Assembly: GCA_043822065.1 (NCBI GenBank)
Contig: JBDRCC010000007.1
Location: 79,373 to 143,372 of the forward strand
DNA from: an archaeon
GTDB lineage: Archaea; Undinarchaeota; CAZHTU01; JBDRCC01
Length of the DNA: 64,000 bases
Direction of reading: 5' to 3'
A program made the translations under genes and the position numbers. Of the stretch, positions 4,966-64,000 are shown piece by piece (within the stretch, counting starts at the first letter, position 1; each line of letters starts with the position of its first letter). Under the pieces are notes generated by a model, which had not been told where the DNA came from, made no database searches, and saw nothing but the letters and a program-made list of their open reading frames with translations.

Positions 4966-6324
4966 ATGGTAGAAATAATACCTCTTGGCGGATATGAGGA
5001 AGTCGGGCGCAACTCGACCGCTGTCAAGTACAAGGACGAAATAGTCATATTTGATTTCGGCTTCCACATGGAGCGCATAGCCTCGATGGGCGAGGACACC
5101 CACGTCCAGATACGGGACATGTCAATTTCCGAATTGCACGAGATAGACGCGATACCTGATGACAAGTGCATCCTGCCCATGAAGAACAAGGTAGTTGCAT
5201 TAGTCTCAAACCATGGCCACCTTGACCACATAGGCGCAATGCCCCAGCTCGCGCCCCAATACAAGGCGCCGATAATCGGGAGCCCATTCACCACCGAGCT
5301 CATAGAGGGCATGTTTGCTGACGCAGCCGTCAAGAACCGAAACAAGCTTGTTACCATGCACCCAGGCGAGCAGGTCGAGCTCTCAAAAAACCTGACCCTT
5401 GAATTTGTGCATACGACCCACAGCATACCTGATACTGTCTTTTCCGTCCTCCACACTCCCGACGGCCCGCTCGTTTACTGCAACGACTTCAAGCTCGACA
5501 ACCACCCGACCGTCGGCGAGAAGCCAGACTACAAGCGTATACGGGAGCTCGGCGACGAGGGCGTCAAAGCTACCATAATCGAAACCGTCAGGATTGACAG
5601 GGAGCGGAAGACTCCGAGCGAAGCAGTCGCCCGCGCACTTTTGGAGGATGTCCTCCTCGGCAGGGAGCACGAAAACGCACTCTTCATAACGACGTTTGCT
5701 TCCCACATACACAGGATAATGATAATCCTCGAGACTGCAAAGAAAATGGGGCGCATTCCGGTCCTCCTCGGGCGCTCGATGTCACGATATTCTGCAATAG
5801 CCGAGCGGCTTGGAATAATGAAAATTCCAAAAGGCGTAGAAGTCGTCGGCAAGGGCAAGGCTATTGACGCCAAGCTAAAGAAATGCGCAAACGATATGGA
5901 CAACTACATTTTCATATGCACTGGCCACCAGGGCGAGCCCAATTCCGTCCTTGACAGGATAGCAAGCAAGAAATTTTCCTACAAAGTCCGCCCTGGGGAT
6001 GAAATCGTGTTCTCAAGCTCAGTAATACCATCGCCAATAAACGAGGACAACCACTACCGCCTGTCGACCAAGCTCAAGGCGCAGGGCGGCCGGCTCTTCC
6101 GCGACGTCCACGTGTCCGGACACGCCTCAAAGGAGGACCACCGCGACCTTCTCATGATGTTCCGCCCCGAGAACATAGTACCCTGCCATGGCGACCTCAA
6201 GAAGCTTGCCGCTTACGCGGAGCTTGCCTCTGAAATGAACGCAGTAAAGAACGAGATGGGCAGGGAGTACAAGCTCGGCCAGAATGTTCACCTTTTGCAC
6301 AACGGCCAAAGGCACGAACTCTAG
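4966..6324 (+). CDS. rnj: Ribonuclease J (beta-CASP metallo-beta-lactamase)
   Basis: IIPLGGYEEVGRN, HGHLDHIG, HSIPD, DFKLD, TGHQGEP, HVSGHAS, PCHGD. Confidence 0.95.
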   Translation: MVEIIPLGGYEEVGRNSTAVKYKDEIVIFDFGFHMERIASMGEDTHVQIRDMSISELHEIDAIPDDKCILPMKNKVVALVSNHGHLDHIGAMPQLAPQYKAPIIGSPFTTELIEGMFADAAVKNRNKLVTMHPGEQVELSKNLTLEFVHTTHSIPDTVFSVLHTPDGPLVYCNDFKLDNHPTVGEKPDYKRIRELGDEGVKATIIETVRIDRERKTPSEAVARALLEDVLLGREHENALFITTFASHIHRIMIILETAKKMGRIPVLLGRSMSRYSAIAERLGIMKIPKGVEVVGKGKAIDAKLKKCANDMDNYIFICTGHQGEPNSVLDRIASKKFSYKVRPGDEIVFSSSVIPSPINEDNHYRLSTKLKAQGGRLFRDVHVSGHASKEDHRDLLMMFRPENIVPCHGDLKKLAAYAELASEMNAVKNEMGREYKLGQNVHLLHNGQRHEL

Positions 6325-50646: not shown

Positions 50647-51891
50647 ATGGTGAAATTTCAAAAGATTGCTCCTCCCAAAGAGGGGAAACCGATTACTTAC
50701 AGGGGAGACAAAATTGTCGTTCCGGACAATCCAATAGTGCCGCACATTGCTGGCGACGGGATTGGCCCGGACATCTCGAATGCTATGAGGATAGTCGTCG
50801 ACGCCGTAGTGAAGAAGGCATACGGCGGAAAAAAGAGGATTTCCTGGTTTGATGTTTACGCTGGCGAGTCCGCAATGGGCATGTACGGCACGCCGCTGCC
50901 CAAGGACACAGTTAATGCAATCAAGGAGTACAAGGTCGCGATAAAGGGTCCGCTCACTACTCCCGTCGGCGGCGGGATCAGGAGCCTTAACGTCTCCATG
51001 AGGCAGATGATGAACCTATACTCCTGTGTGCGCCCGGTCAAGTGGATAAAGGGCGTGCCCGCACCGGTCAAGGAGCCGGAAAAGCTGAACGTCGTCATAT
51101 TCAGGGAGAACACCGAGGACGTTTACGCCGGCATAGAGTGGAAGCAGGGCAGCAAGGAAGTGAAAAAGGTCATCAGCTTCCTCAAGAACCAGATGAAAGT
51201 CAATGTACGGTCCGACTCCGGAATCGGCATAAAGCCAATCTCGATTACCGGGACCAAGCGGCTTGTGCGCGCGGCGATAAAGTACGCGATAAAGCACAAC
51301 AAGAAATCCGTGACCATAGTGCACAAGGGGAACATTATGAAGTTCACCGAAGGCGCCTTTAGGGAGTGGGGATACGAGCTTGCTAAGGAGGAGTTCTCCA
51401 AGCAGGTTATTACCGAAGAGGACGTCAACAAGAAATACGGCGGGAAAATCCCTGCCGGCAAAATACTCTTAAATGACAGGATTGCGGACGCTATGTTCCA
51501 GCAGATCCTTCTCAGGCCGGACGAGTACGAAGTCATCGCACTCCCGAACCTGAACGGCGACTATCTGTCCGACGCCTGCGCAGCGCAGGTCGGCGGGCTT
51601 GGCATGGCGCTCGGCGCGAACATCGGGGACACCATTGCCCTGTTTGAAGCGACCCACGGCACCGCGCCGAAGTATGCCGGCCAGGACAAGGTAAACCCAG
51701 GCTCCATAATACTGTCTGCAAAGATGATGCTTGAGCACCTTGGCTGGAAGGAAGCAGCAGAGCTGATAATCCCTGCAATGGAAAAGACAATCGCGCAGGG
51801 CTATGTTACCTACGACCTTGCCCGGCAGATGGCAGGGGCGAAAGAGGTAAAGTGCTCGGAGTTTGCCAAGAAGATTGTCTCGAACCTGTGA
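50647..51891 (+). CDS. icd: Isocitrate dehydrogenase (NADP+, E. coli type)
   Basis: [75 protein letters not shown]. Confidence 0.97.
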
Positions 51892-51965
51892 GGGGCAAAT
51901 GAGGCTCTTACCTGTTTTTTCGTCGACGTTTTTTCCAGAGAAAAAAGGTCGTGTGAGGTGCTAAA

Positions 51966-53897
51966 ATGAAGGGAACGCTGGCTGAAAAGATACTGAAGGC
52001 GCACGTCGTCGATGGAAAGTTTGAGCCCGGGGCGGAAGTCGGCATACGGATTGACCAGACGCTGACCCAGGACGCAACCGGTACCATGGCCTACCTGCAG
52101 TTCGAGGCCATGGGGCTGCCGAAGGTGAAGACCGAGCTGTCCGTCTCCTATGTTGACCACAACACCCTCCAGACGGACTTCATGAACGCAGACGACCACA
52201 AGTACCTGCAGTCAGTCGCCGCAAAGTACGGCATAATCTTCTCGAGGCCTGGCAACGGCATTTGTCACCAGGTCCACCTCGAGCGGTTTGGCGTTCCCGG
52301 AAAAACTCTCCTTGGCTCTGACAGCCACACCCCCACAGGGGGAGGGCTCGGCATGATTTCAATCGGTGCCGGAGGGCTCGACGTCGCCGTCGCAATGGGC
52401 GGCGGCTCGTTTTACCTCAAGGTCCCGAAGGTCATGGGGATAAAGCTCAAGGGCAGGCTGAAGCCTTGGGTCTCCGCAAAGGATGTGATACTTGAAGTCC
52501 TCAGGCGGGTTGACGTGAAGGGCGGGGTCGGTTACATCCTCGAATACTTCGGGGACGGAGTTAAAACACTTACAGTGCCCCAGCGCGCGACCATAACCAA
52601 CATGGGCGCGGAGACTGGCGCGACGACCTCAGTTTTCCCTTCGGACGAAGTCACAAAGAAATTCATGAAGTCGCAGAGCAGGCTCAAGCAGTGGAAGGCG
52701 TTGAAGGCGGACAAGGGCGCGGAATACGACGAAGTTATTGAAGTCGACCTTTCAAAGGTCGAGCCGCTTGTTGCCCAGCCGCACAGCCCCGGGAAAGTGA
52801 CCACGGTGCGCGAGCTTGAGGGCATGCCAGTCGACCAGGTCGCAATAGGCAGCTGCACAAACTCATCCTATACCGACCTTTCCATCGTCGCTGCAACCCT
52901 GAAAGGCAAGACAGTTTCGCCCAACACAAGCCTGTGCATATCGCCAGGCTCAAGGCAGGTCATGAACACGATTGCAAAGCAGAGCTCGCTCAGCGCGCTC
53001 GTTTTAGCAGGGGCGAGGATGCTCGAGTGCACCTGCGGGCCGTGCATAGGCATGGGGCAGGCGCCGCCGAGCGCTGGCGTCTCTGTCAGGACGTTCAACC
53101 GGAACTTCGAGGGCAGGAGCGGGACCAAGGACGCGAAGGTCTACCTTGTCAGCCCCGAGACCGCGGCTGCAACCGCACTAAAGGGAAAGCTCACCGATCC
53201 GAGGAGGCTCGGCAAGTACCCGACTGTCAAGATGCCTGACAAGTTCGAGATTGACGACAGCATGCTGCTCAAGCCGCCCAAGGGCGGCAAGTCAGTCGAG
53301 ATAATCCGCGGGCCGAACATAAAGCCCCTTCCAATCAAGGAGGAGCTCCCGGACACGCTGTCCGGCGAGGTACTGCTCAAGGTTGAGGACAACATAACCA
53401 CAGACCACATAATGCCGGCAGGGGCGAAAATCCTTCCGCTTAGGAGCAACATACCCGCAATCAGCGAGCATGTATTCGAGCAGGTCGACAAGACATTTGC
53501 AAAGCGCGCCAAGGAAAAGGGCGGCGGAGTCATTCTCGGCGGGGAGAACTACGGCCAGGGCTCGTCAAGGGAGCATGCCGCGCTTGCACCGATGTACCTC
53601 GGAGTGAAGGCAGTAATCGCAAAATCCTTTGCGAGGATACACAAGGCCAACCTTGTGAACTTTGGCATACTTCCTGTGATCCTCAAGAACCCGGCAGACT
53701 ACGAAAAGATTTCACAGGGCGACATGCTGGAGATTCCAGGCGCCAGGAAATCCGTTGAGGGCGGAAGCAGGGAGCTCAAGGTCGTCAACAGGACCAAGAA
53801 CATCGAGATTCCAGTCGTGGCTGACTACTCAGAGCGCGAGAGGGAGATACTTTCCGTTGGTGGCCAGCTCAACTATACAAAGGCTAAAGCGAAATAG
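51966..53897 (+). CDS. Aconitate hydratase
   Basis: TQDATGTMA, DHN, GNGICHQ, GSDSHT, IGSCTN, CGPCIG, FNRNF, TTDHI, NYGQGSSREHAA. Confidence 0.94.
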   Translation: MKGTLAEKILKAHVVDGKFEPGAEVGIRIDQTLTQDATGTMAYLQFEAMGLPKVKTELSVSYVDHNTLQTDFMNADDHKYLQSVAAKYGIIFSRPGNGICHQVHLERFGVPGKTLLGSDSHTPTGGGLGMISIGAGGLDVAVAMGGGSFYLKVPKVMGIKLKGRLKPWVSAKDVILEVLRRVDVKGGVGYILEYFGDGVKTLTVPQRATITNMGAETGATTSVFPSDEVTKKFMKSQSRLKQWKALKADKGAEYDEVIEVDLSKVEPLVAQPHSPGKVTTVRELEGMPVDQVAIGSCTNSSYTDLSIVAATLKGKTVSPNTSLCISPGSRQVMNTIAKQSSLSALVLAGARMLECTCGPCIGMGQAPPSAGVSVRTFNRNFEGRSGTKDAKVYLVSPETAAATALKGKLTDPRRLGKYPTVKMPDKFEIDDSMLLKPPKGGKSVEIIRGPNIKPLPIKEELPDTLSGEVLLKVEDNITTDHIMPAGAKILPLRSNIPAISEHVFEQVDKTFAKRAKEKGGGVILGGENYGQGSSREHAALAPMYLGVKAVIAKSFARIHKANLVNFGILPVILKNPADYEKISQGDMLEIPGARKSVEGGSRELKVVNRTKNIEIPVVADYSEREREILSVGGQLNYTKAKAK

Positions 53898-53948
53898 CTG
53901 CAAGCCGCCAACTAAAAGCTTAAAAATGGATTGAGCCTTACGCTAAAG

Positions 53949-54419
53949 ATGAATACGACAGCAATACAAACCTATGTTGCATTGCTAGCAGTATGGTTTT
54001 TACTGGCTGGCGTAAACAGCCAGACAATCGCGTTTGGGATGTTCTCCTGCTTCATCATAGTCTATTCCACTGGTGCAAAGATTTTCAATAAGGGCGTATT
54101 GTGCAAGCTCCACCTAAAGCGGCTTTTCTGGTTCCTGAGGCACCTTCCATACTATATATGGGCTGAGATAATGTCTCACCTGCTCGTCCTAAGGATGATT
54201 TATCTAGGGGGCATAAAGCCGGAGATCATCGAGGTTCCCCTCCATACTCGAGAGGATCTGACGATAACTGCCACTGGAAACTCGGTGACAATGACGCCAG
54301 GGACTCTTACCCTTGTAGCTGACCAGAACAAGCTCTGGATTCACACCATCGACTCTGACCAAGACGTGGTTGCCGTCACCAAGAAGTTTGAGCAGAATTT
54401 TGAGGGGATGCTCGAATGA
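53949..54419 (+). CDS. mbhA: Mbh subunit A (MnhE/MrpE-like)
   Basis: IKPEIIEVPL, GNSVTMTPGTLT, LWIHTID. Confidence 0.88.
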   Translation: MNTTAIQTYVALLAVWFLLAGVNSQTIAFGMFSCFIIVYSTGAKIFNKGVLCKLHLKRLFWFLRHLPYYIWAEIMSHLLVLRMIYLGGIKPEIIEVPLHTREDLTITATGNSVTMTPGTLTLVADQNKLWIHTIDSDQDVVAVTKKFEQNFEGMLE

Positions 54420-54661
54420 TGCTTGAAGCCGTTATTGTGATACTCGTGCTTGCGGCAATACGAGCGGTAATAGGCCCGACCGTGCCCGACCGGGTTGTTT
54501 CGCTTGACTCAGTCGGCTCTATAATGATATTCATTCTTGCGTTCATCGCGTATGCGTACAAGGAGTGGTACTTGGTCGACATAGCCCTCGTATATGCGTT
54601 CCTTTCGTTTGTGGCGGTAATCGCAATCTCGCGTTACTTGCGGGGTGATTGGAGTGCTTGA
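54416..54661 (+). CDS. mbhB: Mbh subunit B (MnhF/MrpF-like)
   Basis: RAVIGPTVPDRVVSLD, DIALVYAFLSFV. Confidence 0.92.
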   Translation: MMLEAVIVILVLAAIRAVIGPTVPDRVVSLDSVGSIMIFILAFIAYAYKEWYLVDIALVYAFLSFVAVIAISRYLRGDWSA

Positions 54662-54959
54662 ATACCTCTTGTGGCTTGCGGCATTTTTCATGTTCTCGGG
54701 AGCCATAGGCATGCTCCGCTTCCCGGATGTCTACAACAGGATACACTCAAGCACACTGATAACCGTCGGCGGGGCAATGCTCGGCATTTTCGTGCTTGCG
54801 ATAAAATCCTACCCGCTTTCACCGCAGACCTCGATAAAGATGCTCCTATTGATAGCCCTTCTAATCCTGACATCGCCGGTGTCCAGCCACGCAATTGCGA
54901 ACGCTGCGTACAAGTCCGGCATAAAGCCAGTGGGGGTGAAGAGAAGTGCTCCTGCTTAG
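54645..54959 (+). CDS. mbhC: Mbh subunit C (MnhG/MrpG-like)
   Basis: GMLRFPDVYNRIH, TSPVSSHAIANAAY. Confidence 0.92.
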   Translation: MIGVLEYLLWLAAFFMFSGAIGMLRFPDVYNRIHSSTLITVGGAMLGIFVLAIKSYPLSPQTSIKMLLLIALLILTSPVSSHAIANAAYKSGIKPVGVKRSAPA

Positions 54960-55188
54960 CCTTTACTATGTTGCCGTTGTCGCTATGATTGTGATGGCAG
55001 CCATAGCCATACACGCCAAGGACCTTCTCTACGCAGTCATAATCATGGGCGGCTCGCTTGTCATGCTCTCAATAGTTTTCCTTATGCTCAAGGCCCCGGA
55101 CGTTGCAATCACCCAGGCAGCGGTCAACGGTGCTCTCGGCACGGCGCTCTACGTCTTTGCAGTCCTTAAGACCAGGAGGGACGAATGA
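54946..55188 (+). CDS. mbhD: Mbh subunit D (DUF4040)
   Basis: KDLLYAVI, LKAPDVAITQAAV. Confidence 0.9.
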   Translation: MLLLSLYYVAVVAMIVMAAIAIHAKDLLYAVIIMGGSLVMLSIVFLMLKAPDVAITQAAVNGALGTALYVFAVLKTRRDE

Positions 55189-55463
55189 GGCGCGAATCCT
55201 ATCTTGTGCTCCTGCTTGTCTTTGCAGCCCTTTTCGCATACTACTCTGTTCAGTTCCCAGCCTTCGGCTCTTCAGAGTACCTTGGCAGGGACAGGACTGT
55301 TGCGGGGCACTACCTCGAGAACACACTAACCGACACTGGCTCGTGGAACGTTGTCAGCGCAGTCGTCTGGATGTACCGGGGCTACGACACGATGGGCGAA
55401 GTCACAGTGCTGTTTACCGCGGCGCTTTCAGTCTCCTTCCTGTGGAGGATGATGCAGAAATGA
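55185..55463 (+). CDS. mbhE: Mbh subunit E
   Basis: HYLENT..TGSWNVVSAVVWMYRGYDTMGEVTVLF. Confidence 0.9.
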   Translation: MRRESYLVLLLVFAALFAYYSVQFPAFGSSEYLGRDRTVAGHYLENTLTDTGSWNVVSAVVWMYRGYDTMGEVTVLFTAALSVSFLWRMMQK

Positions 55464-55873
55464 TAATCCTCAGGACAATCGGCAGGATAATGTTCCCGTT
55501 CATCCTTGTGATGGGCGTAGCGATGGGCGCGTATGGCCACCTTACTCCGGGCGGGGCATTCCCAGCGGGAGTCATAGTGGCGACCGCTTTCCTCCTATAT
55601 TATATTACTCAGGCAGGCAGCCTGCCTGGTGACCTTGGCGCCAAGCTCTCTGACGAGTACAATGTATCGTCCGCAGGCGTCATGGGCATAATGCTCGTTG
55701 TCCTGTCCGGGCTGGTCATCCTTATGGTCAGGCCGGAGCTTGCAATAAGGTACCCCGGCGAGCTGTTCTCTGCGCTCACCGTCTTTGGGCCCAACACCTG
55801 GGGGATACTCTCAATTGGCTTGGAGCTGATTGTGCTTATACTGTGCTTCATGCCAAAGGAGCAGGAAAAATGA
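55460..55873 (+). CDS. mbhF: Mbh subunit F (MnhB/MrpB-like)
   Basis: ILRTIGRIMFPFI, GHLTPGGAFPAG; ATGA-coupled start at 55460. Confidence 0.9.
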   Translation: MIILRTIGRIMFPFILVMGVAMGAYGHLTPGGAFPAGVIVATAFLLYYITQAGSLPGDLGAKLSDEYNVSSAGVMGIMLVVLSGLVILMVRPELAIRYPGELFSALTVFGPNTWGILSIGLELIVLILCFMPKEQEK

Positions 55874-56220
55874 TAGAGTACTCTGCCTGCTTCATCCTGA
55901 TGCTCATCGGGCTGTACGCCCTCCTCATGAAGGAGAATGTTGTAAAGAAGATAATGGGGCTTTCAATCTTCGGCTCCGGGATAAACCTTCTCTTGATAAC
56001 CCTTGGGTTCAGGCACACCTTCGAGACTGCGGTTATACCAATCATCGGCCCGGAGGTCTCGTACGCCGCGCTGGTCGCGCAGTCAGTCGACCCGCTTCCT
56101 CAGGTCCTTGTGCTGACCGCAATAGTCATAGACGTGAGCGTTGTCGCTCTGGCTCTTTTCCTCGGCATAAACGCCTACAAGCAGTTTGGTACGCTTAGGA
56201 TGGAGGAGTGGAAGGAATGA
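55870..56220 (+). CDS. mbhG: Mbh subunit G (MnhC/MrpC-like)
   Basis: NVVKKIMGL, VDPLPQVLVLTAIVI. Confidence 0.93.
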   Translation: MIEYSACFILMLIGLYALLMKENVVKKIMGLSIFGSGINLLLITLGFRHTFETAVIPIIGPEVSYAALVAQSVDPLPQVLVLTAIVIDVSVVALALFLGINAYKQFGTLRMEEWKE

Positions 56221-57662
56221 TTGACATAATCCTCGTCCCGTGGTTCGGAGCGTTTGCGACAGGAATTGTCTGCAGGTTTACGAAGAAGTTCGGCTACGTG
56301 CCGGTGCTTACATCGCTAATCGCGCTCCTGCTCACGATATGGCGCGCCCCAGCTTTCCTGACTGGCGTAGTGACCCTTGAGATATGGGCGCAGGCGCCTT
56401 ACGGAATCGCGCTTGAGGCGGACGCATTCAACGGGACAATGGCGCTCCTTGCCGGGCTCATATTCACCCTTGTCGCCATATACTCTGTGCGGTACATCGG
56501 CGAGGACGAGAAATACGTCCAGTTCTATGCCCTCTACCAGCTTTTTGTCGCAGGCACCCTTGGCATAATACTTACCGGCGACATCTTCAACATGTTCGTC
56601 CTGCTTGAGATTGCGTCAATAAGCTCGTATGCACTCGTCTCATACGCCCTTGACAAGGAGTCGGTCGCCGGCGGGCTCAGGTACATGCTCATAAGCGCCC
56701 TCGGCACGAGCATATTCCTCCTTGGCGTGACTTTCCTCTACGCGCTTGCGGGCACGCTTAACATTGCCCACCTCGTTGTCATGCTCCAGGGCGTCAACAC
56801 TCCTGTGCTGTTCGCGGCGTTCTCTTTCCTGTTCATAGGTGTTGGCGTAAAGGCTGCAGTCATCCCGCTCTACCTGTGGAAGCCTAAGGCGATTTCGGCA
56901 ACGCCAATACCTGTTGCTACCTTAGTCTCAGGCATCTCAACCGCGACAGCGGTTTACATCCTAATGCGCCTGACCTACACAATATTCTCGGTCTATTCAG
57001 GGATAATCTCCAGCATCCTGCTGTATGCGGGCGTCCTGACGATGCTTCTCGGAGCCTTTATGGCGCTCCTTGAGCCAGACGTCAAAAAAGTCCTTGCATA
57101 TTCCGGCATCAGCCAGGTCGGTTATGCATTCCTCGCTATTGGGTTTGCAACAGCTTCCGGAATCTTTGCAGGCATATTCCACATAATCAACGTCGTCCTT
57201 GGGGAGGCGCTCATATTCCTTTCCCTTGGCTACGTAATACTCCACACTGGTGAAAAGAACCTGCACAAACTTGGGGGGCTTGCCCCGAAGATGCCGCTCG
57301 CGGCTGCAGCATTCCTTTTCGGCTCGCTTTCTGTGGTCGGGGTTCCGCCCCTGAACGGTTTTGCGAGCAAGTGGTTGATATACCTTGAGGGCATAAGCAC
57401 CAACCACATCCTGGCGACCGCGGTCGCGCTTGTCGTCTCGGCGCTCACCCTGGGCTATTACATGAAGGCGTTTTCAGCCATATTCCTCGGGCCCGGCAAG
57501 TGGGCTGATTTCAAATCGGATTGGAGGCTTGACTACCCCATTCTCATACTCCTTGCATTGTGCCTGGTAATCGGCATTTATCCGCCGATAATCTATCCGC
57601 TACTTCAGCCAGCCACTGACGCACTGCTTACGGTTTCAGGCTACCTGGGGGTGCTGGCATGA
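56217..57662 (+). CDS. mbhH: Mbh subunit H (MnhD/MrpD antiporter-like)
   Basis: TGDIFNMFVLLEI, GVKAAVIPL, KKVLAYSGISQVGY, GVPPLNGFASKW. Confidence 0.93.
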   Translation: MIDIILVPWFGAFATGIVCRFTKKFGYVPVLTSLIALLLTIWRAPAFLTGVVTLEIWAQAPYGIALEADAFNGTMALLAGLIFTLVAIYSVRYIGEDEKYVQFYALYQLFVAGTLGIILTGDIFNMFVLLEIASISSYALVSYALDKESVAGGLRYMLISALGTSIFLLGVTFLYALAGTLNIAHLVVMLQGVNTPVLFAAFSFLFIGVGVKAAVIPLYLWKPKAISATPIPVATLVSGISTATAVYILMRLTYTIFSVYSGIISSILLYAGVLTMLLGAFMALLEPDVKKVLAYSGISQVGYAFLAIGFATASGIFAGIFHIINVVLGEALIFLSLGYVILHTGEKNLHKLGGLAPKMPLAAAAFLFGSLSVVGVPPLNGFASKWLIYLEGISTNHILATAVALVVSALTLGYYMKAFSAIFLGPGKWADFKSDWRLDYPILILLALCLVIGIYPPIIYPLLQPATDALLTVSGYLGVLA

Positions 57663-57958
57663 TAGGTATTGGGTACTACATGCTGGTTGTCTTCGGGCTG
57701 GTCTTTGTCATAGGCGGCTCGCTTTACCTCTTCATGTGCAAGCGCCCGACTGGTGCGAAGGGCAAGCAGACCTACCTCGGGGGGGAAGACCTCGAATGGA
57801 CAGGCACAGGTGCGAACTACTACCAGCAGTTTGAGAAGTCGCTGAAGCGGATTTATCCTGCGCTGGAATGCTTCCACAAGGAGGACGCAACATACTACAT
57901 CTTCCTTTTGTGTCTTACCCTCGCCGCACTGCTTCTCGGAGGCTACCTATGGATATGA
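57659..57958 (+). CDS. mbhI: Mbh subunit I
   Basis: TM - KQTYLGGE - amphipathic helix - FH..Y - TM; position between H and J. Confidence 0.75.
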   Translation: MIGIGYYMLVVFGLVFVIGGSLYLFMCKRPTGAKGKQTYLGGEDLEWTGTGANYYQQFEKSLKRIYPALECFHKEDATYYIFLLCLTLAALLLGGYLWI

Positions 57959-58386
57959 CCAAATATCTGGCAAAGTCCCCCTGGCTTTTAGTTTGGGAGA
58001 CTGGCGGGTGCAACGGCTGCATAATTGAGACGCTGGCGTCGGTCACGCCAAGGTTCGACGTTGAGCGATTTGGAATACTCGCAAAGGGCACGCCAAGGCA
58101 CGCGGACATATTCATGGTTCACGGCACTCCGACGCGCCAGAACGCAAAGCGGCTCAAGCGGCTTTACGAGCAGATGCCAGACCCGAAGGTCGTTGTCGCA
58201 GTCGGCGCATGCGCGTCAGGCGGCGGCGTTTTCAAAGGATGCTATGGCACCCACGGGCCAGTTGAAAATGTCATACCCGTCGACGTTTACGTCCCTGGCT
58301 GCCCGCCAAAACCGGAAGCCATAATACTCGGCGTGGTCAAGGCAATAGACGTCCTAAAAAAGAGAGGTAAAAATGCCAAAAAATGA
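57949..58386 (+). CDS. mbhJ: Hydrogenase small subunit (MbhJ/NuoB-like)
   Basis: TGGCNGC, DVERFG, PRHAD, VGACASGGG, PVDVYVPGCPP. Confidence 0.95.
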   Translation: MDMTKYLAKSPWLLVWETGGCNGCIIETLASVTPRFDVERFGILAKGTPRHADIFMVHGTPTRQNAKRLKRLYEQMPDPKVVVAVGACASGGGVFKGCYGTHGPVENVIPVDVYVPGCPPKPEAIILGVVKAIDVLKKRGKNAKK

Positions 58387-58807
58387 ATCGTCTGCGATGA
58401 AGTACTTGCGCGGCATAGCCAAGAACGCAAAGGGGGACTTTGCTGTTGTCGCACCAGAAAACCTGCGGAAAGCAGTCCAGAAGCTAAAGGACAACGGCAT
58501 GTACCGGCTCATATGCATCACCGGCGTTGACACCGGAACTGCAGTTGATGCCATCTACACGCTCTCCTTCGACGGCACAATGTTCAACCTCAAGGTTCCG
58601 CTCAACCACAAGAAGCCGGAAGTCGAATCCATATCCGACCTCCTCCCAGCGGCTTCGCTCTATGAGCTGGAGCTGATGGAGATGCTCGGCGTCAAAGTGC
58701 TGAACCATCCAATGCCTGAAAAGCGCATGTTCCTCCCCGAGGACTGGAAACAGGGCCCGCCGCTGAGAAAAGCATTCATCCAGAAACTGGCAGGAGGGCA
58801 AAAATGA
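58373..58807 (+). CDS. mbhK: Mbh subunit K (NuoC-like)
   Basis: LICITGVD, ESISDLLPAASLYELELMEMLGV..HP..FLPEDW..PPLRK. Confidence 0.93.
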   Translation: MPKNESSAMKYLRGIAKNAKGDFAVVAPENLRKAVQKLKDNGMYRLICITGVDTGTAVDAIYTLSFDGTMFNLKVPLNHKKPEVESISDLLPAASLYELELMEMLGVKVLNHPMPEKRMFLPEDWKQGPPLRKAFIQKLAGGQK

Positions 58808-59976
58808 TAGAGAAAGAGTACTCCTACTTCCTTCCGATCGGGCCGCAGCACCCAGCGCTAAAGGAATCCATGCACCTGACCTTCAAGATGGAGGCGGAAG
58901 AGATAAAGGACATGGACTTCAACGTCGGTTACGTTCACCGCGGGATAGAGGGCGGCATGATGACCCGCTCTTACGACAAGAGCCTGTACCTTGCGCAGAG
59001 GATATGCGGAATCTGCAACCAGATACACGCAAGCGCCTACTGCCTTGCGGTCGAGAGGCTTGTTCCAACCTTCCAGGTTCCAAAGCGCGCAGAGTACATA
59101 CGGACCGTGCTCAATGAGCTGGAGAGGATCCACAGCCACATGCTATTCGTTGGAGTTGCAGCCCACGAGTTCGGTTTCGACACAGTTTTTATGTACACCT
59201 GGCGTGACAGGGAACTGATAATGCAGCTAAAGGAGAAGATTACTGGCAACCGCGTCACGAACGATATGAACTGCGTCGGTGGAATGAGGCGCGACATACC
59301 CAAAGAGCTGGAAAAAGAGCTTGAGGACGCAGTCGAGTACTTCTCAGAGCGTGCGGACTACTACGTTCGCGTATTTACCAAGGACATTTCCGTCCAGAAG
59401 AGGACAAAAGGGATTGGCGTCCTGAGCAAAAAAGATGCGCGGCGGCTGAACGCAGTCGGGCCGACTGCAAGGTCGTCTGGCATCGACTATGATATCCGCT
59501 CGGCGGATCCATATGAGGTATACAAGTATATCAAGTTCAAGCCGGTAATCCTCGAGGACGGCGATGTTTTTGCAAGGGTTGCCTCAAGGATTCTCGAGGT
59601 AAAGCAGGCGTGCGACGTCATAAGGCAGTGCCTGCCGCTCCCGGAGGGCAAGCTAAAGGAAGTCTTCCCAAGGAACGTCCCGCCAGCAGAGGCAGTTGCC
59701 TCCGTAGAGGCGCCGAGGGGGGAACTATTTTACTATGCGAAGTCAAACGGCACAAACATACCTGAGCGCATAAAGGTCAGGACGCCGACTTACGCCAACT
59801 TCCTCGCCCTCAAGCAGTTCACGGTTGGCTACAAGCTCGCAGACATACCACTCCTTGTCGCAAGCATTGACCCGTGCCTCTCCTGCACAGACCGGGTAAC
59901 GGTTGTTGACGAGAAGTCCACGCGGGTGCTTACGCATGCAGACCTCCAGGATATCGCAAAGGAGGAGTACAGATGA
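58804..59976 (+). CDS. mbhL: Group 4 [NiFe] hydrogenase large subunit
   Basis: IGPQHP, GYVHRGIE, L1 QRICGIC, EAPRGE, L2 DPCLSCTDR plus C-terminal extension. Confidence 0.95.
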   Translation: MIEKEYSYFLPIGPQHPALKESMHLTFKMEAEEIKDMDFNVGYVHRGIEGGMMTRSYDKSLYLAQRICGICNQIHASAYCLAVERLVPTFQVPKRAEYIRTVLNELERIHSHMLFVGVAAHEFGFDTVFMYTWRDRELIMQLKEKITGNRVTNDMNCVGGMRRDIPKELEKELEDAVEYFSERADYYVRVFTKDISVQKRTKGIGVLSKKDARRLNAVGPTARSSGIDYDIRSADPYEVYKYIKFKPVILEDGDVFARVASRILEVKQACDVIRQCLPLPEGKLKEVFPRNVPPAEAVASVEAPRGELFYYAKSNGTNIPERIKVRTPTYANFLALKQFTVGYKLADIPLLVASIDPCLSCTDRVTVVDEKSTRVLTHADLQDIAKEEYR

Positions 59977-60821
59977 TTGAGGGAATCCTGCTGATAGCCC
60001 TTGCAATCCCTGCCGGGCTGGTCCTTCAGGGAATAGACCGGAAGCTCACGGCCAGGATGCAGAACAGGATAGGTCCGCCAATCCTGCAGCCCTACTACGA
60101 TTTTATGAAGCTAATCCAGAAACGGGACATAATACCGGACAATGTGGGGGTTTTCTTCACAATTTTTCCGATACTGACCCTCGTAGCATCGCTTTGCGTA
60201 CTGCCATTCCTATCACTTATCTCATTCAAGGGCGACATAATAGTTACCCTCTACCTCCTGCTGATGATTTCAGCCTTCCTCGCCCTCAGCGGATTCGCAA
60301 GCGGCAGCCCGTTCGGCACGATTGGCGCATGGAGGGAGATAATGATGGTCATAGGCTACGAGCTCCCCCTTGTTGTTGCAGTTGTCGCAGTAATAATGGA
60401 CGCTGGCTCGCTTTCGCTTTCCCAGATAGCATCCTCTGCCCACTTCCTGCCGTTTGCTTTCGCAGCCTTCCTGATTTCGACGCAGGCAAAGCTTGCCAGG
60501 TCACCATTCCACATCCCGGATGCAGAAACCGAGATAGTTGCAGGCATACACACTGAATACTCCGGCGTCCGCCTTGCCATGCTGAACCTGTCCGCGGCAG
60601 TCGACCTGTTCATAATGGTAGTTCTTGCCGTGATGCTTTTCCTCAGCCCGCCTACCTGGTACTACTTTGCAGGCTACAGCCTTGCGATTCTTTTCGTCCT
60701 GACCACAGTAAAGGTCATAACCGGAAGGCTCAGGATAGACCAGATGATACGCTTTTTCTGGTTTATTGTCGGGCCAATCGCGCTGATAGACCTGCTCCGC
60801 GTGCTTTTCCTCGCCGCTTAA
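59973..60821 (+). CDS. mbhM: Mbh subunit M (NuoH-like)
   Basis: GIDRKLTARMQNRIGPPILQPYYDFMKL, YELP, PFHIPDAETEIVAG..TEYSG. Confidence 0.94.
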   Translation: MIEGILLIALAIPAGLVLQGIDRKLTARMQNRIGPPILQPYYDFMKLIQKRDIIPDNVGVFFTIFPILTLVASLCVLPFLSLISFKGDIIVTLYLLLMISAFLALSGFASGSPFGTIGAWREIMMVIGYELPLVVAVVAVIMDAGSLSLSQIASSAHFLPFAFAAFLISTQAKLARSPFHIPDAETEIVAGIHTEYSGVRLAMLNLSAAVDLFIMVVLAVMLFLSPPTWYYFAGYSLAILFVLTTVKVITGRLRIDQMIRFFWFIVGPIALIDLLRVLFLAA

Positions 60822-60873: not shown

Positions 60874-61188
60874 ATGGAAACAATCGACACTATCAGGAAG
60901 ATAAGGGAAGCTGAAGCGGCTGCCAGGAAGGACATAGAGAATGCCAATCGGCAGGCGGCAGAAATTGTTGCCAGCGCCGATATTGATATAGCCCGGCTCA
61001 AAGGCTCTGCTGCAAAGGATGCCAGCGCCCAGGCTAAAAAGCTGTTTGCAGAACATACTAAAGCGGGCAAGGCGGAAGCTGGCAAGGTGCGTACGCGCTC
61101 AAAAAAGGAGCTCGAGTCAATTAGAAAGAAGGCCAAGGCAAGGCTCCCTTTGGTTGTTTCCTCTCTCGCGGAGCAGGTGGTAGCTTGA
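60874..61188 (+). CDS. atpH: A1AO ATP synthase subunit H (G-like stalk)
   Basis: IRKIREAEAAARKDIENA..A..I helical pattern; first gene before subunit I. Confidence 0.8.
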   Translation: METIDTIRKIREAEAAARKDIENANRQAAEIVASADIDIARLKGSAAKDASAQAKKLFAEHTKAGKAEAGKVRTRSKKELESIRKKAKARLPLVVSSLAEQVVA

Positions 61189-63101
61189 TTCGCCCTGCCA
61201 GGATGAGCAGGTTTGACGCAGTAGTTTTAGAGCAGGATCGGGACAGAGTTGTAGATGCGCTTCACGAAAACGGGATAGCCCAGATTGAGGACCAGAGCCA
61301 GAGGCTAAGGGGAAAAGAGTGGTCCGAGCTGGCGCGCGCAGGCGCTTCCGAGAGGAGCTCAAACGCATCTTCTCGCCTTTTGAGGGTGAAATGGCTGCAC
61401 GACTTTCTTTCTTCTGCAACCACGCAGCCTCCTGGCAAGTTTGACGTGCTGATGCAGTACTTAAAGCCGGACATTCCTACTCCTAAAGAAATACCGAAGC
61501 GCGGTGTCTTTCGCATGGTCGATTCCCTCCTTGCTGAGGCAGAGCCAAAAATAAAGTTGCTTGAAGGGAAGCATTCTGCAATTCAGTCCGAGAAGGCTAA
61601 GCTCCAGAAGACAATCGATGATGCGGAAAGGATAAAGGGCATACCGTTCGACGTGAGCTGGCTTGGCGAGTCAGAATATACCCTGACCGAGGCAGGAGTC
61701 ATCTCCAAGGAGCATCTCCCTGACCTAAAAGACCTGCCTGGGGAGGTAGCTATTGACAGCTCTGGCGAGTCTGCGGCAATACTCATTTGCTACCTCAAAA
61801 TCGACAGGGAAGCCGTGTCAAAGCAGCTAAGGAAGACTGGCTTTTCCCAAGTGCTCCTCTCCGGCTCTGGAACGCCTGCTGAACTCATAGAGCGCTCCAG
61901 AAGCCGCCTCGGCGAACTTGAATTAAACGAGAAAACCCTCCTTGCAAAGATTTCATCCACTGGAAAAAAGTATCTTGACGGGCTTGCGGCCTGCAGGGAG
62001 CTCCTGGAGATTGAAAAGGCCCGCGGCGAAATATCGTCCGCCTTTGCGAAGACCGAGAAAACCGTCCTCCTAAGCGGTTTTGTCCCCTCCGGCCAGGCGG
62101 AGAGCCTAAGGGAAATTGTGAAGAAATCTTCTTCTGACAGGTACTATTTTGCACATTCCGATGCGGACGACGCCCCCGTGCTGCAGAGCAACCCAAGGTT
62201 TCTGAAGCCTTTCGAGCAGCTAACTGAGATGTTTGCAGTCCCAAAATACAACGAGATAGACCCGACCTTCCTGCTTGCGCCTACCTTCGTAATCTACTAC
62301 GGCCTTATGCTCACAGATGCAGTATATGGCGTAATTCTCTTTGCCCTGAGCGTCCTCCTGCTCAAGACCTATGGAAAGGCCAACAAGGCGGCAAAGGACT
62401 TCAGCTGGGTGCTAATCGCGTGCGCAGTATCCACTATAATATTCGGCGTCCTTACCGGCGGCTACCTGGGCGACATAATGGCGTATCTATTTGGCGCAAA
62501 CCCAGCAGACCTGGCGTTATGGGTTGACCCGCTTACTGACCCGATAGTCATCCTGAAGCTTGCAATCATTATCGGGATACTCCATGTCGACACCGGCGTT
62601 TTTGTCAGCCTCTTGGAAAACCTTCGCCAGAAAAACTTCCGGGCGGCTGCCGTCGACAACGCAGTATGGTTCATACTGCAGGCTGGGATTCTTATGTACT
62701 ACCTCGGGATGCGGGCAGGGCTTGTTCTCATGGGCATTAGCGTGCTCCTGCTGTTCTACGGCTACAAGGTGATGGGGATAATGCACATAACCGGGTTTAT
62801 GGGCGATATCCTTTCCTATGCTAGGCTTTTGGCGCTGGCTCTTGCGACCGGAGGGATAGCCATGACTGTCAACCTGCTGGCAAAGATGGTCTTTGCAGTC
62901 CCTTACGTTGGAATAGCCCTCGCAGCCGTGGTCCTGCTGGTCGGCCACACCTTCAACTTCATCATGAACGCATTAGGCTCTTTCATCCACAGCCTCCGCC
63001 TGCACTACGTTGAGTTTTTCGGGAAATTTTACTCGGGCGGCGGAAGCAAGTTTTCGCCATTTAGGGCGGAGCGCAGGCTGACGAAATTGGAGGCTCGTTA
63101 A
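61185..63101 (+). CDS. atpI: A1AO ATP synthase subunit I (a)
   Basis: RPARM, PFEQLTEMFAVPKYNEIDPT, YGLMLTDAVYG, DILSYARLLAL, IHSLRLHYVEFFGKFY. Confidence 0.96.
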   Translation: MIRPARMSRFDAVVLEQDRDRVVDALHENGIAQIEDQSQRLRGKEWSELARAGASERSSNASSRLLRVKWLHDFLSSATTQPPGKFDVLMQYLKPDIPTPKEIPKRGVFRMVDSLLAEAEPKIKLLEGKHSAIQSEKAKLQKTIDDAERIKGIPFDVSWLGESEYTLTEAGVISKEHLPDLKDLPGEVAIDSSGESAAILICYLKIDREAVSKQLRKTGFSQVLLSGSGTPAELIERSRSRLGELELNEKTLLAKISSTGKKYLDGLAACRELLEIEKARGEISSAFAKTEKTVLLSGFVPSGQAESLREIVKKSSSDRYYFAHSDADDAPVLQSNPRFLKPFEQLTEMFAVPKYNEIDPTFLLAPTFVIYYGLMLTDAVYGVILFALSVLLLKTYGKANKAAKDFSWVLIACAVSTIIFGVLTGGYLGDIMAYLFGANPADLALWVDPLTDPIVILKLAIIIGILHVDTGVFVSLLENLRQKNFRAAAVDNAVWFILQAGILMYYLGMRAGLVLMGISVLLLFYGYKVMGIMHITGFMGDILSYARLLALALATGGIAMTVNLLAKMVFAVPYVGIALAAVVLLVGHTFNFIMNALGSFIHSLRLHYVEFFGKFYSGGGSKFSPFRAERRLTKLEAR

Positions 63102-64000
63102 TGGTGTCTGAAGGGGCCGTGCTTGCGGCGCTTGGGGCGGCAATAGCAGTCGGCGGCGCAGGTCTCGCAAGTGGCATGGGTGCTGGCATCAGCGGAGCGG
63201 CGGGCGCGTCAGTGGTAGCTGACGACCCAAAGAAGTTCGGCCTTGCGATAATATTTCAGGCAATTCCGCAGACCCAGGGCTTTTACGGCTTCCTCATCGG
63301 CATTCTCATACTGTTCGGCACAGGAATCCTTGGCGGGGCTGGCGTCGAGGTGCCTATTGCAGTCGGGCTTGCGTGCGTCGGCGCAGGGCTCGCAGTCGGC
63401 ATATCCGGATTCTCCGCAATCGGCCAGGGGATAGTCTCCGGTGCTGCTGTCTCCGAGGCAGCCAGGCGCCCGGGGATGTTCGGCAAGGGGATGGTCTTTT
63501 CCGTACTTCCTGAAACCCAGGCAATATACGGCCTTCTCATTTCAATATTAATCCTATTTTTTACTGGGGTTATCGGCGGTGCAGGGATGCCTGACATCCC
63601 CCTCGCTGCCGGGTTTGCAGCAATAGGCGCAGGGCTCGCAGTCGGGCTTGCCGGGTTGTCGGCAATCGGACAGGGAATTGCCGCGGCGGCAGGCGTCGGA
63701 GCGACTGCTGAGAAACCAGAGGCGTTCGGGAAGTCAATGGTATTTTCCGTACTTCCGGAGACCCAGGCGATATACGGGCTGTTAATCTCAATTTTGATAC
63801 TTTTCTTTACAGGAATTATCGGCGGAAATTACCTTCCGCAGATGGAGCTACCAATTGGAATCGCCGCAATAGGCGCAGGCATGGCAGTTGGTTTTGCAGG
63901 GCTTTCTGCCATAGGGCAGGGCATTGCGGCGGCAGCAGGCGCAGCAGCCACTGCGGACAAACCCCATATGTTCGGCAAATCAATGGTCTTCTCCGTACTG
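63101..64000 (+). CDS. atpK: A1AO ATP synthase subunit K (c), at least four fused hairpins, 3'-truncated by window edge
   Basis: Hand translation from ATG 63101: 300 codons with no stop; PQTQGFYG, then SAIGQG...VLPETQAIYG twice and a fourth SAIGQG...MVFSVL. Confidence 0.94.
   Translation, partial: MVSEGAVLAALGAAIAVGGAGLASGMGAGISGAAGASVVADDPKKFGLAIIFQAIPQTQGFYGFLIGILILFGTGILGGAGVEVPIAVGLACVGAGLAVGISGFSAIGQGIVSGAAVSEAARRPGMFGKGMVFSVLPETQAIYGLLISILILFFTGVIGGAGMPDIPLAAGFAAIGAGLAVGLAGLSAIGQGIAAAAGVGATAEKPEAFGKSMVFSVLPETQAIYGLLISILILFFTGIIGGNYLPQMELPIGIAAIGAGMAVGFAGLSAIGQGIAAAAGAAATADKPHMFGKSMVFSVL
63370..64000 (+). repeat. ~246-bp tandem intragenic repeats in atpK
   Basis: GGCGCAGGGCTCGCAGTCGG at ~63380 and ~63626; TTTTCCGTACTTCCnGAnACCCAGGCnATATACGG at ~63497 and ~63743; third copy in progress at the end. 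Confidence 0.85.

Follow-up and report, generated by a model that had tools for sequence, protein, structure and literature searches.

The window analysed here is a stretch of 64,000 nucleotides (nt) from an Undinarchaeota genome bin (G000; 82% complete, contamination 0.05, smallest contig 2348 nt). It corresponds to positions 79373–143372 of contig C7, and its base 64000 is the end of that contig. A hydrogenase cluster, atpH and atpI follow one another on the plus strand, and the window closes inside atpK, the gene for the c/K rotor subunit of an A-type ATP synthase, which is the subject of this work. The visible part of atpK is an open reading frame (ORF) of 300 codons (63101–64000, plus strand) with no stop and an open 3′ end. 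The start codon, ATG, shares bases with the TAA that ends the atpI ORF, and a GGAGG lies 9–13 nt 5′ of the ATG. Four stretches of the ORF match Pfam family PF00137 (E 1.5e-56, 188.9 bits against a cut-off of 24), a homology that confirms this frame as the 5′ part of atpK. Both the frame running from the atpI stop to the window end and its four c-subunit hairpins had been proposed in a first-pass annotation, made from the sequence alone, and both hold.

The hairpins, all on the plus strand, have a motif spacing of 81–82 amino acids (aa), or 243–246 nt. Hairpin 1 (63110–63340) is a ‘blank’ cap with the signature A.PQTQ..Y (here PQTQGFYG): Gln57 (63269–63271) occupies the place of the ion-binding Glu, Ala that of the helix-1 Gln, and Thr58, Gln59 and Tyr62 are kept. 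Hairpin 2 (63353–63583) is complete, with Gln109 and Glu138 (63512–63514) followed by TQ..Y in the motif PETQAIYG, as is hairpin 3 (63599–63829; Glu220 at 63758–63760; Q...PETQAIYG). The N-terminal part of hairpin 4 (63845–64000) comprises helix 1 with its Gln, the loop and the start of helix 2, and ends in FSVL immediately before the PET; the rest lies on contig C17. These motifs were as first described, including the likeness of the blank hairpin to that of the Methanocaldococcus type. The hairpins 2–4 had also been called alike at the DNA level with a period of about 246 bp. The spacing agrees, but nucleotide identity is only 61–75% (hairpins 2 and 3, 70%; 3 and 4, 75%; 2 and 4, 61%), and no 246-nt array was called inside the window by Tandem Repeats Finder at a minimum score of 30. 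A clearer period found by that program is one of 489 nt, equal to two hairpins, on C17 (76% matches over 2.7 copies).

The best solved match is the K subunit of Enterococcus hirae, NtpK (2BL2; E 1.1e-20), whose whole chain is spanned by hairpins 1 and 2 with the Na+ ligands in register. Ile55, Thr58, Gln59 and Tyr62 fall on Leu61, Thr64, Gln65 and Tyr68 of NtpK, Gln109 on Gln110 and Glu138 on Glu139; Tyr68 we take to be a Na+ ligand as well. The other aligned positions are named as ligands in PMC2359735, and a Na+ motif of helix-1 Q/E plus helix-2 E[STQ][STQ]xxY is given in a preprint (10.64898/2026.10.01.756066). The Na+-site signature named in the first reading (Q/E/T/Y) is thus supported, the residues Q/E/T/Q/Y matching the NtpK ligands one by one.

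That annotation also held, rightly, that the full repeat number cannot be seen in the window. The last 88 nt (63913–64000, plus strand) overlap the end of C17, read on its reverse strand, with 100% identity, and within the bin this sequence occurs at these two contig ends only. The two contigs have similar GC contents (C7 0.529, C17 0.524) and carry all 11 PF00137 stretches of the bin. A simple join keeps the frame and gives a protein of 812 aa with 10 PF00137 hairpins and 9 Glu sites: a blank hairpin 1 (A.PQTQ..Y), eight complete hairpins 2–9 (Q.PETQ..Y) and a last hairpin 10 (Q.PETF..L), which has Gln and Glu and lacks the Gln and Tyr for a following site. Glu is present in nine of the ten, hairpin 1 having Gln instead. 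With this join atpK also lies between atpI and atpE-atpC (PF01991 and PF01992), which come after it on C17, an order seen in six of the nine relatives’ loci examined. The earlier proposal of a many-hairpin c/K subunit is therefore borne out. In the window lies the beginning of a c/K rotor gene, the only one found in the bin, within an atpH-I-K-E-C cluster, and we put at roughly 90% the probability that this gene runs off C7 and resumes on C17 with at least 10 hairpins, namely a blank first, eight complete ones and a capped last.

The distribution of ligands along the joined protein suggests how the sites would be built. Each would be NtpK-like, with Thr, Gln and Tyr contributed by helix 2 of hairpin n and Gln and Glu by hairpin n+1. 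Because a site is shared in this way, the first hairpin needs no Glu and the last no Gln or Tyr. A full ligand set can be assembled for every Glu: hairpins 2–9 read Q...ETQ..Y, hairpin 10 combines its own Q and E with the T, Q and Y of hairpin 9, and the T, Q and Y of hairpin 1 serve the site of hairpin 2. A chain of H hairpins would thus hold H−1 sites, the junction of its last hairpin with its first being left blank.

Hairpin number and the break between the contigs

Six pairs of contig ends in the bin were found to overlap exactly. Five of the overlaps are exactly 141 nt long (C7 start/C18, C5/C16, C20/C11, C19/C1 and C14/C13), which indicates an assembly at k=141 in which adjacent unitigs share a branching 141-mer; the bin could be scaffolded further at these five points. 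Only the overlap of C7 with C17 is 88 nt, and a short unbinned unitig should therefore lie between the two. The terminal 141-mer of C7 (63860–64000, plus strand) forms the first 141 nt, and the first 141-mer of C17 (63913–64053 in joined coordinates) the end, of a 194-nt segment, 63860–64053, which must be an exact repeat node with at least two entries and at least two exits. A shorter exact repeat, the 110-nt stretch that hairpins 5 and 7, offset by 489 nt, have in common, was resolved by the assembler, as k=141 predicts; this stretch looks like a gene-conversion tract.

Public reads supply a second entry. One run (X1) held 0.18 of the sampled words, and X2 and X3 are runs of the same sample or study. 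Three short Logan contigs of X1 were placed on the locus at a depth of 2–7, and none of X2 or X3; a contig depth of this kind does not measure copy number. Two agree with atpI at 100% identity. The third agrees fully with the window over 63794–63823 and 63860–63980 and departs from it by 13 substitutions, one insertion and one deletion, all within 63824–63859, the linker of hairpins 3 and 4; the last of these changes falls one base ahead of the terminal 141-mer of C7. The variant is in frame and matches no assembled copy in the bin, the best match being C7 itself at 92%. This contig leads into the repeat node by a second path.

A single additional 489-nt unit of two hairpins would account most simply for both branches at once. 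Its unitig would be about 577 nt long, far below the smallest contig of the bin. Given the repeat node at the break, one such unit or more is probably missing from the assembly, and a gene of 12 hairpins would have 11 Glu sites. A true number of 12 or more hairpins is the outcome we favour, by a modest degree of confidence, and a number that is neither 10 nor at least 12 seems improbable.

The principal competitor is that the simple join is right, with exactly 10 hairpins, 9 sites and 812 aa, and that the second path comes from a co-occurring strain or relative. The join itself speaks for it, since the 88-nt overlap is exact, frame and alternation of hairpin types are kept, and the joined hairpin 4 is 91% identical to hairpin 6 and 87% to hairpin 8. 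X1, moreover, need not be the assembled sample, and complete genes of 7, 8 and 9 hairpins exist, so that counts are not limited to 6, 12 and 13. The behaviour of the assembly is harder to reconcile with it. At k=141 a lone strain bubble would also have broken C7 to the left of the variant stretch, or been popped; C7 continues through its linker and ends only where a 141-mer is fully shared for the first time, and a second exit is required for C17 too. The 131 capped database proteins described below include none of 10 hairpins. We therefore regard a 10-hairpin gene as unlikely, although a serious contender.

A capped series of rotor genes and the size of the ring

PF00137 was found in 35 of 40 relatives, with 1 to 13 hairpins per frame. 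When the ten hairpins of the joined protein were made into a profile and this was scanned over all fetched loci and proteins, one architecture recurred: a blank first hairpin (no Glu, no helix-1 Gln, TQ..Y), N complete hairpins, and a last hairpin with Q and E followed by F/Y..F/L. E. hirae NtpK has N=0; 15 three-hairpin genes of the Methanocaldococcus/Methanothermococcus type, and G039, have N=1; G023, G027 and G033 have N=2, and G012 has N=3. N=4 is found in G008, G010, G014, Thermoplasmata loci and proteins of about 484 aa named from cultured Methanocalculus, Methanofollis, Methanolinea and Methanomicrobium. By simple join the present gene has N=8, and G005 and the Thermoplasmata locus L019 have N=10. 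The series reaches genes of 12–13 hairpins in Undinarchaeota, Thermoplasmatota and Nanobdellota.

A word-indexed protein search gave 271 matches in the 297–947 aa band, the best 120 of which were used, and 37 in the 948–2705 aa band, where the longest protein has 1186 aa. Both caps are present in 131 of the 156 proteins scored. Their hairpin counts peak at 6 (91 proteins) and at 12–13 (14 and 11), with 9 proteins at 5, 3 at 7, 2 at 8, 1 at 9 and none at 10 or 11; three proteins of 10 or 11 hairpins without the blank first cap look like fragments. Five further proteins have 15 hairpins, every one with Glu, and two of these are named Promethearchaeota (P0122 and P0301–P0304, about 1108–1147 aa, only 32–35% identical to the present protein). 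In a library clustered at 50% identity the family shrinks to few representatives, 27 proteins at E <= 1e-30. The K proteins of G008, G012 and G014, genomes of the same phylum, are 100% identical to entries named Candidatus Undinarchaeota, Undinarchaeales or archaeon UBA543, and on this basis the present organism is most likely an undinarchaeote (kingdom Nanobdellati) from an order of its own. The present gene is not unique; its relatives abound in databases.

Several departures from the plain series were seen along the way. Thermoplasmata K subunits of about 590–650 aa (P0012, P0026–P0031, P0058 and others; loci L020–L024) combine six c hairpins with PKD-type domains (PF00801, PF18911, PF22352), N-terminal to the hairpins in the loci examined, a predicted fusion that would put an extracellular-type domain on a rotor subunit. 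The genes of L045 (Thermoplasmata), P0005 and P0018/P0019/P0021 are by appearance end-to-end fusions of whole capped genes, with patterns of 6+3+3, 6+3 and 4+3; their internal ‘last’ and ‘first’ caps give several blank junctions per chain. Separate c genes of 4, 3 and 2 hairpins stand on one contig of G023 (C22, locus L049), in a genome with 14 PF00137 stretches, and may serve a heteromeric ring or several ATPases. Two members of one genus (g6), G012 (L052) and G005 (L046), have 5 and 12 hairpins in otherwise similar operons, which reflects either a rapid change in number or repeat collapse in short-read assemblies.

Among known systems, the M. jannaschii type, represented here by the 15 three-hairpin genes and G039, has the same three kinds of hairpin: a blank first (x...PQTQ..Y), a complete middle (Q...PETQ..Y) and a capped last (Q...PETF..F). 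The end hairpins are close in sequence too, hairpin 1 being 80% and 78% identical to the first hairpins of six-hairpin genes and 72% to the first of three in L030, and hairpin 10 being 70% identical to the last of four in L048 and 69% to the last hairpins of three-hairpin genes. The difference is one of number, with a single middle hairpin against eight, probably ten, in the present gene, which is long enough for most or all of a ring. NtpK ends in a helix with ETYAIL, resembling the terminal PETFAIL here, but has no middle hairpins, forms a ring of 10 subunits and carries 0.5 sites per hairpin against 0.9. The K subunit of M. kandleri shares with the present gene the encoding, in a single gene, of about a ring’s worth of Na+-type hairpins; in the Methanopyrus type examined (G029, 99.4% identical to a protein named Methanopyrus sp. 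KOL6) all 13 hairpins are complete and there is no blank junction, whereas here hairpin 1 lacks Glu and the helix-1 Gln and hairpin 10 lacks Gln and Tyr. The capped genes of 12 hairpins (G005/P0278, L019, L045, P0273 and others) share with the present gene both the caps and a middle unit of two alternating hairpins. In G005, from the same phylum, these are a first hairpin, 10 middle ones and a last, with 11 Glu. They differ in that repeats group per gene, in an AtpI to which that of the present genome is not close, and in number, the count here being 10 by simple join.

Rotors with 6–13 ion sites are reportedly treated by Müller in J Bioenerg Biomembr (2004). PMC9171764 (2022) gives archaeal c subunits 1, 2, 3 or even 13 hairpins, PMC2359735 (2008) names duplications, a triplication and the 13-hairpin protein, and in the available part of the October 2026 preprint (10.64898/2026.10.01.756066) hairpin numbers ‘can vary widely’, only M. 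kandleri being named. A search of the searchable papers, which covers neither supplementary alignments nor subscription journals, found c subunits of 4 to 12 hairpins described nowhere; such forms may be listed among the c-subunit alignments in the preprint’s supplements and in Additional File 1 of PMC2359735. The first-pass annotation had allowed that c subunits with four or more hairpins might already be well described in this lineage. Forms of 5 to 15 hairpins are indeed common in sequence databases, this phylum included, but a paper describing them did not come to light. Many-hairpin rotors encoded by single archaeal genes are widespread and form a series that is apparently undescribed.

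The chain probably closes into a whole rotor ring by itself, turning against AtpI, as proposed for M. kandleri, whose K subunit of 13 hairpins is put forward as a monomeric rotor by Lolkema and Boekema 2003 (reference entry in PMC2359735). Two lines suggest a monomeric ring here, the census and the confidently predicted single-chain fold of a relative. The modes of 6 and 12–13, with no longer chains, would fit a ring of about 12–13 hairpins made from two chains or from one. The fold is that of P0273 (970 aa, 12 hairpins), the closest complete relative among proteins of at least 948 aa and 63% identical to the C17 part. It was predicted with a mean predicted local distance difference test score (pLDDT) of 88.9 and a predicted template modelling score (pTM) of 0.89, as twelve helical hairpins; DSSP shows kinks or breaks in their helices and gives 46 helix segments in total.

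If one chain makes the ring, the ion/ATP ratio would be 9/3 = 3.0 Na+ per ATP with 10 hairpins or 11/3 = 3.7 with 12. If 50 kJ/mol is assumed, the former would require about 173 mV and the latter about 141 mV, against about 86 mV for a two-chain ring (at least 6 Na+ per ATP). The first-pass annotation had suggested a raised ratio that would permit synthesis at low driving force. The analysis gives this part of its reading no support. A ratio of 3.0 or 3.7 falls in the range of the ratios of 3.3 for E. hirae and 4.3 for M. kandleri inferred in the preprint (10.64898/2026.10.01.756066). A one-chain ring is not a low-driving-force design; only a two-chain ring would be.

Such a ring, made of at least two copies of the chain, would have 20–24 hairpins, 18–22 sites and 6–7 Na+ per ATP, and would be a true low-driving-force adaptation. 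A ring of 20 hairpins has a precedent in the E. hirae K-ring, solved as 10 two-hairpin subunits according to the same preprint, and the adjoining Mbh-type hydrogenase may point to a low-energy fermentative life in which a high ion/ATP ratio helps. Chain length argues the other way: nothing longer than 1186 aa was met in the 948–2705 aa search, and the peaks at 6 and 12–13 fit a ring of about 12–13 hairpins from one chain or two. In M. kandleri the protein of 13 hairpins is read as a monomeric rotor in the reference title listed in PMC2359735, and the a subunit here is ordinary in length and family. On balance we think a multi-chain ring improbable and retain the single-chain ring as the preferred reading.

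Gene neighbourhood and origin of the repeats

The stator a subunit is encoded by atpI (61185–63101, plus strand; 638 aa; PF01496 E 1.8e-24), whose product finds its relatives with phmmer E-values of 1.8e-61 to 5.9e-127. Upstream lies a gene for the stalk subunit H, atpH (60874–61188, plus strand; 104 aa), assigned by NCBIfam AhaH/PRK08404 matches (E 1e-7 and 4e-9) that are both below the curated cut-offs; homologues occupy the matching position in G001, G008, G027 and G029. Directly 5′ of atpH is a Mrp/Mbh-type group-4 [NiFe] hydrogenase cluster (53931–60821, plus strand), identified with Pfam and NCBIfam, in the order of MrpE-, MnhB- and MrpD-like and then NuoB-, NuoC-, NuoD/NiFe large- and NuoH-like subunits. 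The translated large subunit keeps both CxxC nickel-binding motifs. No NuoI-like gene was found in the C7 part of the cluster. One for a NuoI/HycF-like 2x[4Fe-4S] subunit of 118 aa lies just past atpC on C17 (locus L018, 8369–8725, minus strand), so that the atpH-I-K-E-C genes are enclosed by the hydrogenase cluster, most of it on their 5′ side. In three of the nine relatives’ loci the full I-K-E-C order was not seen: L048 shows I and C without an E match, L013 is too short to extend beyond the end of I, and L051 shows I only.

The genes that come after atpC in this genome are those for a ferredoxin-like protein, malic enzyme and fumarase, not atpF-A-B-D. The malic enzyme and the two-subunit fumarase lie at 5164–8036 of L018 on C17, downstream, and isocitrate dehydrogenase and aconitase at 50647–53897 of the window, upstream. 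This central carbon gene set is notable for a genome of about 1 Mb in a DPANN phylum. In G005, G008 and G027 the A and B genes stand after C on the same contig; A and B were above the cut-off in four of five relatives tested, in G001 on a separate contig.

The neighbourhood also bears on whether the C7 and C17 pieces could derive from K genes of separate strains or organisms that were placed in one bin. A repeat node terminates both contigs, and the assembly graph accordingly leaves the pairing of entries and exits unfixed. The two pieces are nevertheless complementary halves of a conserved H-I-K-E-C order, C7 lacking atpE and atpC and C17 lacking atpH and atpI, and the NuoI-like gene absent from the hydrogenase cluster of C7 sits on C17 right after atpC. 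With the matching GC content, PF00137 on these two contigs only and a contamination of 0.05, a chimera is very improbable.

Between hairpins 2–10 pairwise identity is 57–82% for nucleotides, 21–61% at third codon positions and 53–91% for protein, values that mark them as old copies under purifying selection. Duplication during assembly was rejected because of this divergence: the gene is repetitive and stands at a contig end, the only points in favour of an artefact, and the copies differ at 18–43% of nucleotides and most third positions with frame and motifs kept, in an architecture shared by many independent database proteins, some of them from cultured methanogens with closed genomes.

A tree of 160 hairpins (75 columns, quick method) was assessed with the Shimodaira–Hasegawa-like approximate likelihood ratio test (SH-aLRT). 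Hairpins 4, 6 and 8 of the present gene form an exclusive clade (88), as do hairpins 5 and 7 (97). The repeats of G005 group with one another and with those of its congener G012. By contrast, first hairpins of different genes cluster together (74; a set of 17 rows), as do last hairpins (85). The best outside matches of the middle hairpins include hairpins 2 and 3 of the four-hairpin gene of G027 (77–82%). By its sequence the gene can be read as four or five copies of a two-hairpin unit set between a first and a last hairpin. It may have arisen by tandem amplification of the two-hairpin middle unit in an ancestor like the four-hairpin genes, with ongoing gene conversion. The repeats were either amplified within the lineage or homogenised by gene conversion, and the data do not separate these. 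The earlier suggestion that ion-binding hairpins of a V-type-like ancestor were amplified fits well with the NtpK-like end pair and with end hairpins that group across genes and middle ones that group within the gene. The caps and the within-gene grouping together set this amplification apart from that of Methanopyrus.

The same-order relatives G001 and G002 have single-hairpin c genes. AtpI of the present genome matches that of multi-hairpin genomes with E-values of 1e-117 to 1e-127 and that of G001 and G002 with 6e-94 and 2e-61. In the AtpI tree it stands on a long branch (1.02), weakly grouped (SH-aLRT 81) with G027 and Methanococcales, and AtpI as query found no related locus in the genome contigs collection. 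Because the AtpI branch is long and the support weak, no claim of transfer is made.

Coupling and energy conservation

Coupling to Na+ is suggested by the motif together with the adjacent Mrp/Mbh-type hydrogenase. Several points weigh against the picture of a complete single-chain Na+ rotor of 12 hairpins. No read or contig among the Logan contigs of X1, X2 and X3 bridges base 64000, and the second path into the repeat node could stem from a co-occurring strain rather than from the same gene. Complete capped proteins of 7, 8 and 9 hairpins make up 6 of the 131, so that 10 is possible, and the census is biased by its length windows and by the use of the best 120 of 271 matches; metagenome-assembled genomes may also collapse repeats. 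The predicted fold is that of the relative P0273, not of the present protein, and carries no information on ring closure. The specificity for Na+ has the sequence motif as its sole basis. Finally, the A1 head subunits (PF00006 for A/B, PF01813 for D) were not found in the bin, which at 82% completeness does not amount to their absence from the organism.

A bolder reading would make the capped series a general, undescribed hard-wiring of archaeal rotors, and the present gene a single-chain rotor of 12 hairpins and 11 Na+. A ring of about 12–13 hairpins would have been fused independently in many lineages, as two chains of 6 or as one of 12–13, by amplification of the two-hairpin unit with exactly one blank site left per chain, and here the rotor would be transcribed within a Na+-pumping Mbh hydrogenase cluster. 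We hold this reading tentatively, at somewhat less than even odds. If true, it would give a member of the Undinarchaeota, a DPANN phylum usually regarded as host-dependent, a minimal Na+ respiratory chain of two enzymes.

How many ion sites a ring carries determines the ion/ATP ratio, and hence the lowest membrane potential at which ATP can be made. The graded series, from 4 to 13 hairpins plus 15 in proteins with Asgard names, would follow a simple rule, sites equalling hairpins minus one per chain. With a ring stoichiometry fixed genetically in this way, the ion/ATP ratio may be readable from sequence, and natural single-chain rings would be offered for structural work. For the organism itself, atpK beside an Mbh-type hydrogenase points to Na+-based energy conservation in a small-genome archaeon.

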